A stretch of 64,000 nt of DNA, from contig OZ220744.1 of assembly GCA_965116925.1 (NCBI GenBank), positions 96,001-160,000 on the forward strand, given 5' to 3'. The position numbers and the translations under genes were made by a program. The stretch's first letter is position 1. Each line of letters begins with the position of its first letter. Positions 31,477 through 38,307 of the stretch are shown one piece after another. Under the pieces are notes generated by a model that saw only the letters and a list, made by a program, of their open reading frames with translations, did not search any database and had not been told where the DNA came from. The stretch is from Candidatus Poribacteria bacterium (GTDB lineage: Bacteria > Poribacteria > WGA-4E > PCPOR2b).

Positions 31477-32332
31477 GCATCCAGATCCACTGTTCCGGGT
31501 GGCGTCGAATGTAAGATTCAATAACTTTGGTGAACTGCTGTGTGTTGACCAAGAGATCTGCTTCTTTCTCTCCACTCTGTTGTAGAAGCAATGGTGCTTC
31601 GATAATAGCACGATGTGAATTGTCCGGTTGACGGACAATAAAAGTTGGTAAAATCGCAGCCCCGGTCTTGAGCGCGAACGCTACAGGGCTATAAGGTGTA
31701 TAGGCAGGTTTGCCGAAAAAATCAACGAAGATGCCGCGAGTACGGGTGTCCACATCTGCAAGAATCGCAATCAGTTCATTTCGATTGAGACAGCGTAATA
31801 CTTCGCGAACCGACCGATCTCGGTCTATACCTTGCCAGCCAACCTTTTCTCGATAGCTGCTAACAATCGCATCTAAACGCTTGGATCGCAGCTCACGGGT
31901 GATCCCACGGATTGTATAGCCATGTGCAAGAATGCTCGCACCAAGAAGTTCCCAGTTGCCAAAGTGAGCCGTCAGGATGATCGCGCCTCTTCCTTGAGTC
32001 AGTGCCTTATCAATATGTTCTCTGCCCTCAAGGGTAACAAGTTGATGGAGTGTTTCAGGAGACATGCGAGGCAGCTGCATAAATTCCATCAAGTTCTTAC
32101 CGATATTCTGGAAGGAGCGTCGGGCAAGCCTGCCTACCATTGGCTGATCAATACCAAGACTCTGTGCCAGATGCTTGCACGCCTTATCCTTTTCGCGATG
32201 GGACAACAAGAAAACAGCTGTAGCAAGATGAACACCTATGAATAAAGCGAGTTTGCGAGGCAGCCGAGCAATGCACTGACCTATACATTTTGCCGTAAAT
32301 ACGTAACAGTAATCTTTCAGAGTGCGCCACAT
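31448..32332 (-). CDS. Lipid A late acyltransferase (LpxL/HtrB family)
   Basis: TAHFGNWE, DFFG, PEQWIWMHERWK. Confidence 0.92.
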   Translation of the reverse strand: MWRTLKDYCYVFTAKCIGQCIARLPRKLALFIGVHLATAVFLLSHREKDKACKHLAQSLGIDQPMVGRLARRSFQNIGKNLMEFMQLPRMSPETLHQLVTLEGREHIDKALTQGRGAIILTAHFGNWELLGASILAHGYTIRGITRELRSKRLDAIVSSYREKVGWQGIDRDRSVREVLRCLNRNELIAILADVDTRTRGIFVDFFGKPAYTPYSPVAFALKTGAAILPTFIVRQPDNSHRAIIEAPLLLQQSGEKEADLLVNTQQFTKVIESYIRRHPEQWIWMHERWKTQPE

Positions 32333-32484
32333 ACCTATCCCTATTATAGCAAAGTCAACCTGCAATGACAAGGGAATTCATGGATGCAAGGGGGAGTTGG
32401 GACTAGTTGGCATAAAAATTGATAGTCAGTATCGATCTCTGTTGTTAATGGATCTGAATGTTTGAAAATTGACTGAAGTTTTGC

Positions 32485-32513
32485 TTGAGGCTGGAGTTTA
32501 AGTGTGTTAAAAT
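32485..32513 (+). promoter_or_regulatory. Predicted sigma70 promoter for the rsgA leader
   Basis: TTGAGG-17-TAAAAT with TG extension. Confidence 0.5.
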
Positions 32514-32598
32514 AAGCGGAGCTGCAACTTCAATTAGAAATAGGCGTTAGATATAGATAGCAACTCAATTAAGGCATATCGAAAGGTGGTGCAAAGTC

Positions 32599-32715
32599 AT
32601 GCAAGAAATGCTTGAACGAATTAACTACGGTAAGAAAAACAACACATTCGATAATCAGGAAACTCGTCTTGACTCTGCCCATCTGTGTGTCGGGTCGCCG
32701 GGAACGGCTACTTAA
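32599..32715 (+). CDS. Putative 38-aa leader peptide/uORF
   Basis: RBS GAAAGGTGG; MQEMLERINYGKKNNTFDNQETRLDSAHLCVGSPGTAT*; below ORF-track cutoff. Confidence 0.5.
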   Translation: MQEMLERINYGKKNNTFDNQETRLDSAHLCVGSPGTAT

Positions 32716-32738
32716 GATCTCGTTTGGTGTAATGTCGG

Positions 32739-32776
32739 AAAGCCCGTAAGGATGAGTTTCCTTGCGGGCTTTTTTT
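32739..32776 (+). terminator. Intrinsic terminator just upstream of rsgA
   Basis: Stem AAAGCCCGTAAGGA/TCCTTGCGGGCTTT, 6-nt loop, T7 tract. Confidence 0.85.
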
Positions 32777-32801
32777 ATTTGACCTTGTGAGGTTCTATTT
32801 T

Positions 32802-33803
32802 ATGGATGAAGGAATTGTTATCAAAGCACACGGTGGGGTTTATGATGTCCAAATCGGGGGACAACTCTACCACTGTTCATTGCGACATCATATTATTGAA
32901 GCCGATAGACGGGAACGTGCCGAAACGAAAGAGTTACCCTACGTGGATCTCGTTTCTGTCGGAGATCAGGTGCGAATCTCTCGATCGGAATCGAAAACAG
33001 ATCTAGGCTATATTGAGGAAATTCTACCGCGTCAGACCCAATTTGGTCGTACGCGCGTAAACAAATTGCCACAGGTCATTGTAGCTAATCTCGATCTCCT
33101 GCTAGTCATCTTTGCAGCACGAAACCCTCAACTCAAATTACGCATGCTGGATCGATTTCTTGTGACAGCAGAGGCTTCGGGCATGTTGCCCGTGATCTGT
33201 ATTAACAAGATTGATCTGGTCCAACTGGAAAAATTGAAAGCACAAATGGCACTGTACGAACGAATCGGTTACAATGTCGTCTACACCAGTATTGTAACGG
33301 GTGCTGGAATTGACGAAATGCGTGCAGTGATGAAAGATCGGATTTCCGCTATCGTCGGATCGTCCGGCGTTGGTAAATCATCACTACTCAACGAAATTCA
33401 ACCGGGCTTGCAGCTGCGCGTCGGCGATGTTGATGATCGGATGCACAAAGGACAGCACACCACAACGGAGGTTGCCCTACTGCCACTCCATTTTGGTGGG
33501 TTTGTCGCAGATACACCGGGCATTCGTACACTTGGGTTGTTTGAGATTGATGATGAGCAGGGACTAGACATCTATTTTCCCGAAATGCGTTCCTACATTC
33601 CCGAATGCAAATTTGCAGCGTGCACCCACCAACATGAACCGGGGTGTGCTGTTAAGAGTGCTGTCGAAGATGGAAAAATTAGCGAGTTGCGGTACGATAG
33701 CTACTTGCGCATATCGGGATTTAGCGCAGGAAGATTTGAACGTGAAGGACCGAAGAAAGAGAAAAAACGGTACGAAAGGAGGCATAAACGTGCCAAGCGA
33801 TAG
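32802..33803 (+). CDS. rsgA: Ribosome small-subunit-dependent GTPase A
   Basis: NKID, GSSGVGKSS, GQHTTT, DTPG, CKF..C.H..EPGC zinc finger. Confidence 0.96.
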   Translation: MDEGIVIKAHGGVYDVQIGGQLYHCSLRHHIIEADRRERAETKELPYVDLVSVGDQVRISRSESKTDLGYIEEILPRQTQFGRTRVNKLPQVIVANLDLLLVIFAARNPQLKLRMLDRFLVTAEASGMLPVICINKIDLVQLEKLKAQMALYERIGYNVVYTSIVTGAGIDEMRAVMKDRISAIVGSSGVGKSSLLNEIQPGLQLRVGDVDDRMHKGQHTTTEVALLPLHFGGFVADTPGIRTLGLFEIDDEQGLDIYFPEMRSYIPECKFAACTHQHEPGCAVKSAVEDGKISELRYDSYLRISGFSAGRFEREGPKKEKKRYERRHKRAKR

Positions 33804-34641
33804 TGGACAGCAAGTGATTGACAAATTGAGACGAATTATTGAAAAAAATGAGCAGAAACTCACCTATTTTCAGAATCGACTGAAGCAGTCTGAGTTCATT
33901 GATCAACCGAACCAGCGCCTAATTGGCACCGCGGCGGGACAGGCGGATTCATATACAGATCAGCTGGCGATCCTGCAAACTCAACTACGCGAGCTAGAAA
34001 AACTTTACGGCGGCAGCCTAAAACTGAGAACAACTGAAGAGCGAGATTTGCGGCGAAGTTGGGGTTGGACAAATGAGCCGACCCTTCGTAATCGCTTGCA
34101 CACTCAGTTCATGCCCTTCCAAACTTACGTTGACAATTGGCATCGCTGGCTGGCTGACGAATATACGCACCCGCTTTCAGTTGATCTGCCAAGCGGTGAA
34201 TTGGTTGGTTTTATGCTAATTAGATGCACCGGTAGGGATGAGAAAATTGCGACACTTGAGTTTATTGTTATTCGACCTGATTGCCGTTATCAGGGGTATG
34301 GCACAGAGGCGATGCAGCAGGCAATCGACTGGGCATTTGAACATCTCGGTGCCGATACCTTTGAGCTGCAAGTCAGTGTCGATAACTATGCTGCATTTCT
34401 CTGTTTTGAGAGGTGTGGACTGGAGTGCATTGACCAAGGACATTATGGGAACTTGGAATCCTATCGCATGGAGATGCGTCGTGAAGTTTGGAAAGACACT
34501 AGATCTGCTGGGGCAATTCCAGAACACGATGACCGTGAGACACCGCCTACCCGGAATCTTGATGCAGTTGGAGAAAGATCCAGTCCCTATCTTACGGCGA
34601 AACTGCTGGCACCCTTAAAAGAACTCGTTTCTGATCGCTAA
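33790..34641 (+). CDS. GNAT (RimJ/RimL-like) acetyltransferase with N-terminal coiled coil
   Basis: GTG start with AAGGAGG RBS overlapping rsgA end; QGYGTEAM, N.AA...FE..G motifs. Confidence 0.8.
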   Translation: MPSDSGQQVIDKLRRIIEKNEQKLTYFQNRLKQSEFIDQPNQRLIGTAAGQADSYTDQLAILQTQLRELEKLYGGSLKLRTTEERDLRRSWGWTNEPTLRNRLHTQFMPFQTYVDNWHRWLADEYTHPLSVDLPSGELVGFMLIRCTGRDEKIATLEFIVIRPDCRYQGYGTEAMQQAIDWAFEHLGADTFELQVSVDNYAAFLCFERCGLECIDQGHYGNLESYRMEMRREVWKDTRSAGAIPEHDDRETPPTRNLDAVGERSSPYLTAKLLAPLKELVSDR

Positions 34642-36852: not shown

Positions 36853-38307
36853 TTACTTGTGGGTAGATTGGCTTAACTTTACCAATGCCTTCATTGCCTC
36901 GAACTTGAAGTACATGTCCTGATTATCATCTCCGATAATTTCGATTAGTCCAGGAATCGCACTTTTATCCCCCAATTCACCTAACACTGTCGCCGCATTC
37001 CATAGTACCAAGATCTCGTCTACAGGATCCCATCGTGGCACACCTTCGCCATGGTTGAGAGCGTTTATCAAAACAGGGATGCCACGCTTGTCCCCCAACT
37101 TTGCCAACGCTTCTGCGATAACCCATTGTACCGTGATATTATTGTCATCGTTGAGAGCATTTATCAAAGCGGGCACGGCACGCTCATCTCCCAATTTTCC
37201 CAACGCTTCTACGGCAAAGATATTTTTATCGTTAAGAGTGCTTATCAAAGGGTCAACGGCGCTGTTATCTCCTAACTTTCCCAACGCTCCTGCAGCGGCC
37301 CATCGTACCGTGATATCGTCATCGTTGAGAGCGTTTATCAAAGCGGGCACGGCACGCTTATCTCCAAACTCTCCCAAAACGCCTGCGGCATTCATTCGTA
37401 CGGTGCCATTATCATGGTTTAGAGCGTTAATCAAAACAGGTACACCACGTCCATCCCCCAATTTGTCCAATACTTTTGCAGCAGTCCGTCGTATGGCGCT
37501 ATTATCATGGTTGAGGGAGTCAATCAAAACGGACTCACCGCGCTTATCTCCTAACTTTACCAGCGCTCCTGCGGAAGCTAGGCGTACCCAGACAATATCG
37601 TTGAGAGCGTTTATTAAAGCCGGGATCGCACTTTTATCGCCCAACTCTCCTAACGTTTCTGCAGCCTTCGATTGTACCCAACGATTATCGTCATCGAGAA
37701 TCTTTATCAAATGGGGCACCGCACTTTTATCATTTAACCTCCCTAACGCTTTTGCTGCCGCCTTCTGTACCTCGTCCCAGTCATGGTTGAGGACGTTTAC
37801 CAAATGGGGCACCGTACTTTTATCCCCCAATTTTCCCAATGCTATTGCGGCCTCCAGTACGACCTCGCTATTGTTATCGTTGAGGAGATTTATCAGCGTA
37901 GGAACAGCACGTTTATCTCCCAATTCTCTCAACACATAGGTAGCATACGCTCGTACCTCCGAGCTATCATCGTTGAGAGCACCAAGCAGTAGTTCAAGTA
38001 GCAGCTCTCCAGAGAGTGTTTCACTCAGTTTATAAAACTGATAATACGCTTTGAACGCTTTCTCGGTTTGCCCATTTGCAGCAAGTACCTTTGCTAACAT
38101 GGCATGCCCAATCGGTTTCTCTGAGTTCTCTAAAATAAAACCCTCAACCAATTTTAATGCGTTCTCATAATCATCCACTTCGAGGAAGGCACTGATGCCC
38201 TTTTCCAATTCTGATCCTTCAGAATTACCGCCTGAAGGTGTCGTTATGAGGCAGGTAAGGATAGCCAACAGGCCGAGAACTAGGGTCACCGCGTTCAAGT
38301 GTTTCAT
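36853..38307 (-). CDS. Exported HEAT (PBS-lyase-like) repeat protein
   Basis: Signal peptide, TPR-like segment, ~11 repeats of VR..AA.ALG.LGD..AVP.LI.ALND. Confidence 0.9.
   Translation of the reverse strand: MKHLNAVTLVLGLLAILTCLITTPSGGNSEGSELEKGISAFLEVDDYENALKLVEGFILENSEKPIGHAMLAKVLAANGQTEKAFKAYYQFYKLSETLSGELLLELLLGALNDDSSEVRAYATYVLRELGDKRAVPTLINLLNDNNSEVVLEAAIALGKLGDKSTVPHLVNVLNHDWDEVQKAAAKALGRLNDKSAVPHLIKILDDDNRWVQSKAAETLGELGDKSAIPALINALNDIVWVRLASAGALVKLGDKRGESVLIDSLNHDNSAIRRTAAKVLDKLGDGRGVPVLINALNHDNGTVRMNAAGVLGEFGDKRAVPALINALNDDDITVRWAAAGALGKLGDNSAVDPLISTLNDKNIFAVEALGKLGDERAVPALINALNDDNNITVQWVIAEALAKLGDKRGIPVLINALNHGEGVPRWDPVDEILVLWNAATVLGELGDKSAIPGLIEIIGDDNQDMYFKFEAMKALVKLSQSTHK

Follow-up and report, generated by a model that had tools for sequence, protein, structure and literature searches.

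In this work we have analysed a 64,000-nucleotide stretch of a Candidatus Poribacteria genome, referred to here as the window, and the leader within it which precedes the genes of an accessory RsgA-family GTPase and a GNAT acetyltransferase. Comparison of the orthologous leaders, together with folding models, gives good support to the view that this leader is a ribosome-dependent transcription attenuator, since its upstream open reading frame (uORF) is conserved and its deletions stay in frame, the pairing is conserved, synonymous change is held down where the helix strands lie, and the helices exclude one another in the models. It is a real, conserved and apparently so far undescribed attenuator of a known type, from which it differs in its target and in its long uORF, which folds onto the site of its own initiation.

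Distribution of the leader

A DNA search of 61 genomes returned 30 loci, and the leader was found in 23 distinct genomes belonging to 4 genera of one family. The 7 loci kept outside the leader alignment comprise three repeats of included genomes and four loci without the leader. Throughout the 23 Poribacteria genomes the leader is present as a single copy and always precedes the same type of rsgA, and no paralogous leaders were found elsewhere in the source genome. The preliminary description of this DNA had made its proposal of an attenuator depend on conservation of the pairing and of the uORF, and across these 23 genomes of 4 genera both are conserved.

A covariance model built from the 23 leaders and run against 150 genomes of the order gave full-strength matches in the 23 source genomes only, as follows from its construction, and otherwise two weak matches (E about 0.01) and one terminator-only match; the counts for the three other families were 1/103, 0/11 and 0/7. 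A pattern scan of metagenome contigs gave 35 matches, none of them with the leader or with rsgA. Copies of the promoter block which lack the leader stand upstream of other genes in two genomes (L124:2988-3063 in G007 and L125:2986-3035 in G005). In genome G025 the accessory rsgA is split across two contig ends (L039 and L040); no leader was found there, and a second GNAT homologue lies two genes upstream.

Table 1. Features of the leader and of the two genes behind it, in window coordinates
Feature	Position	Strand	Remarks
Sigma54-like -24/-12 site	32407..32422	+	TTGGCA-N6-TTGA; kept in 22/23 orthologous loci
Sigma70-like promoter, extended -10 (TG)	32485..32513	+	TTGAGG-17-TAAAAT; 9/12 match; start predicted at about 32520
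Very strong uORF Shine-Dalgarno (SD) sequence	32581..32591	+	-15.1 kcal/mol against the 16S 3' end of the same genome; in 23/23 loci
Helix P1 (anti-antiterminator), 5' strand	32584..32601	+	uORF SD and AUG; 94% of cells paired
uORF, 38 codons	32599..32715	+	ATG 32599, stop 32713-32715; 34-38 codons in relatives
Antiterminator, 5' strand	32657..32673	+	uORF codons 20-25; pairs with 32746-32762
Helix P1, 3' strand	32668..32684	+	shares 32668-32673 (6 bases) with the antiterminator
Candidate RNA polymerase pause at 32736	32726..32737	+	G-10, Y-1, G+1; after weak hairpin around uORF stop; low confidence, picked post hoc
Intrinsic terminator	32739..32776	+	hairpin 32739-32772, 7 T at 32770-32776; loop and upper stem form the antiterminator 3' strand
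Accessory RsgA-family GTPase	32802..33803	+	zinc finger and each of the four G motifs intact; C-terminal tail basic
GNAT acetyltransferase	33790..34641	+	N-terminal helical hairpin; start overlaps rsgA end

Promoters and general layout

The preliminary description had listed a promoter, a ribosome-binding site, a 38-codon uORF and a terminator followed by rsgA some 25 nt further on, and all of these were found in the sequence (Table 1). The rsgA ATG at 32802 stands 25 nt downstream of the terminator T run, and the gap between terminator and rsgA is 29–39 nt in 21/23 loci. Little room had been seen there for a separate rsgA promoter, in agreement with the lack of any promoter-like match between terminator and rsgA in all 23 loci. 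Taken by itself, the sigma70-like match is not above chance (6 found versus 6.1 expected); a matching site is found at the equivalent position in 22/23 orthologous leaders. Further upstream lies a site which we take to be sigma54-like, assuming the usual -24/-12 consensus, and which is retained even in loci where it has been displaced, by inserted sequence or because another gene lies upstream. It could be a second promoter or a binding site for RpoN. This site points toward rsgA and adjoins a divergent operon that ends in rpoN; the divergent gene run starts with a lipid A acyltransferase gene and lptC (both assigned by Pfam), and the rest of it is, judging by the translations, presumably lptA-lptB-rpoN.

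From four studies we consulted four RNA-library runs in the form of assembled contigs, which carry no level, strand or end and may include DNA. In the closest run a contig starts at 32528 and spans the leader, the terminator, rsgA and the GNAT gene, with 32380–32527 uncovered. The terminator sequence is joined to rsgA on contigs in 3/4 runs, the fourth being without cover over the leader, and one run has a contig which spans the promoter gap. The contigs give a weak hint of a transcript start near 32520 and of readthrough.

The uORF

The strength of the uORF SD is equalled by 62 of the 3685 long ORFs of the genome, and SD and ATG are kept together in 23/23 leaders. The uORF frame is open in 23/23, compared with 13/23 and 0/23 for the other two frames, and deletions of 12 nt and 3 nt among the relatives preserve it. 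dN/dS is 0.62 for the uORF (L022 and L023 omitted) and 0.07 for rsgA (21 loci, non-independent pairs), and in one relative the C-terminal half of the uORF is frameshifted while the helices are retained. Synonymous change (pS) amounts to 0.13 in codons 2–7 and 0.12 in codons 20–29, as against 0.46 in codons 8–19 and 0.44 in rsgA; such low values on both sides of a neutral-like block indicate constraint at the RNA level. Within codons 8–19 pN is below pS, with a ratio of 0.34. Judged from these comparisons, selection appears to act on the uORF being translated and not on the sequence of the peptide. The R/K-x-R/K motif occurs in the first 17 uORF codons of 0/23 leaders, by which a drug-stall motif of this kind is ruled out. 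We also rejected the idea that the uORF is a decayed infA: profile matches had E of at least 0.36, and 1/12 pairwise alignments reached 5/200 shuffles, the others at least 21.

RNAalifold places a weak hairpin of 6 pairs around the uORF stop. The pause listed after it was assigned by what we take to be the consensus, and all three positions are kept in 19/23 loci. The existence of a consensus pause sequence is confirmed in 10.1101/422220, the accessible part of which does not give its letters.

Three helices with shared strands

The preliminary description had proposed a 17-nt pairing between the uORF and the terminator, with two G-U pairs and one mismatch, and this proved exact; a duplex of this quality with the terminator strand arose in 1/2000 dinucleotide shuffles of the uORF. 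Its elements were correct and its structural account was incomplete, as it missed a third helix, P1, in which the SD and AUG of the uORF are hidden. P1 has 16 pairs, 94% paired, and shows the strongest covariation of the three helices, with 3 two-sided changes, spread singly over three genomes, and a covariation score reached by 0/500 shuffles. Kinship can inflate such counts; 20/23 sequences come from one genus and each two-sided change stands in one sequence only. Registers slid from that of P1 were at most 47% paired, RNAalifold predicted P1 unprompted, and a duplex of P1 quality was present in 19/2000 shuffles. When covariation of the two helices named earlier was examined in the 23 leaders, it amounted to only 1 two-sided change for the antiterminator (94.8% paired, score reached by 41/500 shuffles) and was lacking for the terminator, which is 96.6% paired and has no two-sided changes. 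The terminator loop is 96% conserved, the requirement expected of a sequence that pairs with the uORF.

Since P1 and the antiterminator both use 32668–32673, the layout is that of an anti-antiterminator, an antiterminator and a terminator. In the most distant leader the overlap between the first two is maintained by different bases. Genome G020 (L023/L036) has a terminator with a 27-nt insertion, a gap of 261 nt to rsgA with repeat-like sequence, and a different upstream promoter, with the P1 and antiterminator pairings nonetheless preserved. A hairpin resembling the G020 terminator stands alone at G020:C1:180003-180041.

Folding models and the proposed switch

Folding was modelled with ViennaRNA, which leaves pseudoknots outside its model; the core of the antiterminator could form as a pseudoknot beside P1. 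For the full leader at equilibrium the terminator wins in 23/23 whatever the position of the ribosome, and no switch is visible. As the complete terminator always wins at equilibrium, any switch must be kinetic. In the models the antiterminator forms only before completion of the terminator, and as long as the terminator is incomplete the energies of P1 and the antiterminator differ by no more than about 6 kcal/mol in 20/23 leaders.

In the ribosome-free state the result changes with the end of the RNA. P1 dominates in 20/23 leaders at 32757 (antiterminator 1/23); the antiterminator dominates in 13/23, the source genome included, at 32762, where it is lower in energy in 14/23; and at 32767 P1 dominates in 19/23 (antiterminator 0/23). 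When a ribosome is placed on codon 1 or codon 3 with the RNA end at 32757, the antiterminator dominates in 13/23 and 15/23, respectively, and for a ribosome on codons 1–16 with no pairing across it the figure is 15–20/23. If pairing across the ribosome is allowed, codons 6–16 give the antiterminator in just 2–4/23, that is, not the ON state. With the ribosome on codon 22 the antiterminator was obtained in 0/23. The ribosome-dependent attenuator of the preliminary description is well supported by conservation and these models taken together; its view that poor translation leads to readthrough becomes one of two readings, the ribosome-free models being mixed. Masking by uORF translation, which it had also proposed, would account for the OFF state with ribosomes on codons from about 18 to 28, and not beyond these.

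How might such a leader work? The strong SD and the AUG are transcribed first, and a ribosome would normally load immediately. A ribosome that runs through would, once it is near codon 18, cover or unwind the strand of the antiterminator; in its wake P1 could hide the SD again and occupy those six bases with which the antiterminator has to begin, leaving the terminator free to form (OFF). Should no ribosome arrive, P1 would form about 90 nt later and the terminator would again tend to form. A ribosome or an initiation complex held on the start or on the first 16 or so codons would block P1; the antiterminator could then capture the emerging terminator loop, with readthrough into rsgA and the GNAT gene (ON). 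The signal may be an early stall that does not depend on sequence, or a slow departure from initiation, such as translation inhibitors or faulty small subunits bring about. We give an even chance to this switch, in which a ribosome retained on the start codon or on one of the early codons means ON, and run-through or no ribosome means OFF. The preference for P1 in 20/23 ribosome-free leaders at the point where the terminator loop first emerges favours the order in which a stalled ribosome opens and an absent one closes. According to the models, OFF when the ribosome never loads is held less securely than OFF on a run past codon 18 or so.

Could the same attenuator work in the other direction, so that absent or late ribosomes turn it ON? 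This was the direction chosen in the preliminary description. P1 would then serve as a timer by which late ribosomes are shut out, the antiterminator would displace P1 or arise alongside it, and a shortage of active 30S subunits would result in readthrough and might so provide the feedback on ribosome supply suggested there. Such a logic would suit a 30S maturation factor, 11 of the antiterminator pairs lie outside P1, the ribosome-free models ending at 32762 are in its favour, and loss of the uORF start in M. tuberculosis whiB7 raises basal expression (PMC10274678). However, P1 arises some 70 nt earlier in transcription, occupies the bases which would pair first and dominates at 32757 and 32767, and its overlap with the antiterminator has been kept with different bases in the most distant leader. 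We therefore regard this direction as somewhat unlikely, and prefer the switch that is opened by a held ribosome.

It is decidedly less probable that the uORF and the terminator make up a stand-alone small transcript, for a small protein or a regulatory RNA, with rsgA and the GNAT gene expressed by constant leaky readthrough or from the sigma54-like site and no ribosome gate at all. The dominance of the terminator at equilibrium, the pN/pS of 0.34 in codons 8–19, the conserved sigma54-like site and the RNA-library contigs that cross the terminator would all agree with such a transcript, but the peptide sequence is free to vary, with a frameshift in one relative, the terminator loop is both conserved and complementary to the uORF, and the leader is found solely before the accessory rsgA. 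We think it very unlikely that a metabolite or an RNA-binding protein throws the switch, for example RsgA or a ribosomal protein on P1, with the uORF being secondary. P1 and the antiterminator are near-equal in energy, like the helices of ligand-gated leaders, and the spacer 3' of the uORF stop codon, for which we assigned no strong structure, is 90% conserved. Against this, the leader has no conserved multi-helix core, and its P1 loop tolerates deletions, all of which keep the frame. No Rfam family scored above its gathering score in the window, and a search of 32300–32900 gave terminator-like chance matches only, at E of 1.9 (the best) or above, which excludes a known RNA family. Hardly credible is an amino-acid-sensing attenuator, with Asn/Gln-rich early codons (Asn 52 and Gln 39 of the 368 residues in codons 2–17) or as a general sensor of all amino acids (19 of 20 are present in the source-genome peptide): the uORF has no amino-acid run, as had been noticed before, and no conserved or enriched sensing codons, its composition is explained by the A-rich loop, an all-amino-acid sensor is ruled out by relatives with 16–19 amino acids where background 38-mers peak at 16, and the downstream genes, for a GTPase and a GNAT, are non-biosynthetic.

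The accessory RsgA and the GNAT

The product of rsgA belongs to the RsgA (YjeQ/CpgA) family, with circularly permuted G motifs and a C-terminal zinc finger (Pfam RsgA_GTPase, E 9e-56; TIGR00157, 244 bits at a cut-off of 100). A second copy with 48–50% identity is encoded elsewhere in the source genome. An rsgA with 45–51% identity to this protein is present in 29/29 genomes of the family, and the accessory type occurs in addition in 24/29; it was also found in 69/100 genomes of a sister family and, among the matches listed, in no other family. The tree took 9/23 leader loci and 8/39 sister-family loci, a motif filter having removed the third-type RsgA and the three rows from outside Poribacteria; in it the accessory RsgA forms a separate clade with 100/100 support. 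The gene behind the leader is thus an accessory rsgA paralogue and not the housekeeping copy; the preliminary description had the family right, and its 30S maturation GTPase is to be replaced by this accessory copy. A third type of RsgA, of about 410 aa and with an N-terminal extension, is present in 5/29 family genomes (L031-L035, L130), and in G020 also after a second infA. RsgA has been described as a checkpoint of 30S maturation (PMC5499641), and in Streptomyces an RsgA paralogue and 16 GNATs are among the members of the WblC regulon, which is induced by antibiotics (PMC7157823), as stated in the accessible parts of these reports.

The GNAT follows the accessory rsgA in 23/23 leader loci and in 39/39 sister-family loci, compared with 0/10 for the housekeeping type. 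It had been called a coupled RimJ/L-like GNAT. Its start does overlap the end of rsgA, but RimJ/L is a label at the Pfam level only (Acetyltransf_3, E 5.8e-13; no NCBIfam model above its cut-off), and by sequence as well as by fold it comes closest to SpeG and AAC(6')-Ib, with about 20% identity. The homologue search pointed to no substrate, the named ones among the 100 matches listed being Poribacterial.

We examined 39 of the 69 sister-family loci (L049-L088). All 39 have the same genes without this leader, which was counted against the attenuator model, and infA occupies the position of the leader in each of them. In 3/3 genomes tested this is a second infA. Here infA, the accessory rsgA and the GNAT gene make up a single operon, preceded in 33/39 loci by a conserved motif in the promoter region, and no terminator before infA was detected by a simple hairpin-plus-T pattern in the 33 loci where the motif was located. 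In seven sister-family loci, all from one genus, the 5' region is about 200 nt long. The rsgA-GNAT operon looks like an accessory small-subunit/initiation module which is under two different controls in the two families, and the genomic context fits a translation-stress module. The sole IF1 found in the source genome lies outside the window (G000:C1:6438317-6438865), in a frame whose N-terminal part is a long repeat of low complexity, rich in G, R, P, Q and S. Within the window, a 484-aa protein encoded at 36853–38307 on the minus strand consists of tandem helical-repeat-like units, presumably HEAT-like.

Comparison with known leaders

Classical amino-acid attenuators, such as that of E. coli trp, combine a translated leader with a 1:2, 2:3, 3:4 topology. 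The present leader would share both, but has no run of sensing codons, an initiation site as its region 1 and a non-biosynthetic target. The structural features of the vmlR/rli80 type are all present: a uORF with its own SD, an intrinsic terminator, an antiterminator and an overlapping P1 which a start-bound ribosome would block. By sequence and folding models, the leader is structurally a member of the three-helix uORF attenuators. The models tend toward the behaviour of this type, that is, induction by stalling and a start-codon mutation which leads to OFF, and are mixed for the ribosome-free state.

As far as the accessible parts of the reports on vmlR of Bacillus subtilis (Takada et al. 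2022, PMC9226507) and on rli80/hflXr of Listeria monocytogenes (Duval et al. 2018, PMC6310831) describe them, stalling at the uORF blocks the anti-antiterminator in both, and a mutated start codon locks the switch OFF. In vmlR, as would be the case here, the uORF is tied to the anti-antiterminator; a ribosome held at initiation prevents the latter, the antiterminator forms and termination is avoided. The coding identity of the vmlR uORF was probed with natural variants, and a pause site is part of the leader design (PMC9226507), to which the low-confidence candidate pause corresponds in our case. The vmlR uORF has 3 codons and is set in a local hairpin, whereas here a uORF of 34–38 codons carries the antiterminator strand and a second strand, which reaches back over about 70 nt to pair with the SD and AUG of this uORF. 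The target of vmlR is an ABC-F protein and here an RsgA paralogue and a GNAT. No hairpin hiding the SD of the main gene, rsgA, was found.

Closer in its target is rli80, also a three-region uORF attenuator controlling a second paralogue of a ribosome-associated GTPase, in which mutation of the start codon or of the antiterminator locks OFF and mutation of the anti-antiterminator locks ON (PMC6310831). It differs in its 14-aa peptide with an RLR drug-stall motif, which has no R/K-x-R/K counterpart in the early codons of our leaders; moreover, HflXr recycles blocked 70S ribosomes while RsgA acts in 30S maturation. The two systems have no sequence relation. The actinobacterial whiB7/wblC leaders share the long uORF, the general sensing of translation stress and an antiterminator opposed to an intrinsic terminator, but loss of the start codon turns whiB7 ON, as in the rival direction discussed above (PMC10274678), its uORF is Ala-rich, and it controls a transcription factor, where the present leader would control effector genes directly. 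The preliminary description knew of no leader of such a kind for rsgA, and our literature searches likewise found no leader control of rsgA, with subscription journals and supplements (Term-seq riboregulator tables, for instance) being places where some may be listed.

Possible meaning for the cell

Perhaps the leader senses the quality of 30S initiation. The SD would capture a 30S subunit, P1 would close the site about 90 nt later, and the outcome would be set by timely loading and leaving. The output would be a small-subunit rescue module (the accessory RsgA, the GNAT and, in the sister family, the second IF1), a 30S counterpart of HflXr-type rescue that shuts itself off once the subunits work. 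We offer this as speculation and consider it unlikely in this full form. If the proposed switch is true, it would mark the second rsgA copy as an inducible factor of translation stress, as is the case for HflXr. The RsgA paralogue, the GNAT and the second IF1 together would then be a candidate module for the repair or protection of small subunits. Lastly, an initiation site which doubles as the strand of an anti-antiterminator permits us to ask whether an attenuator can sense initiation itself.
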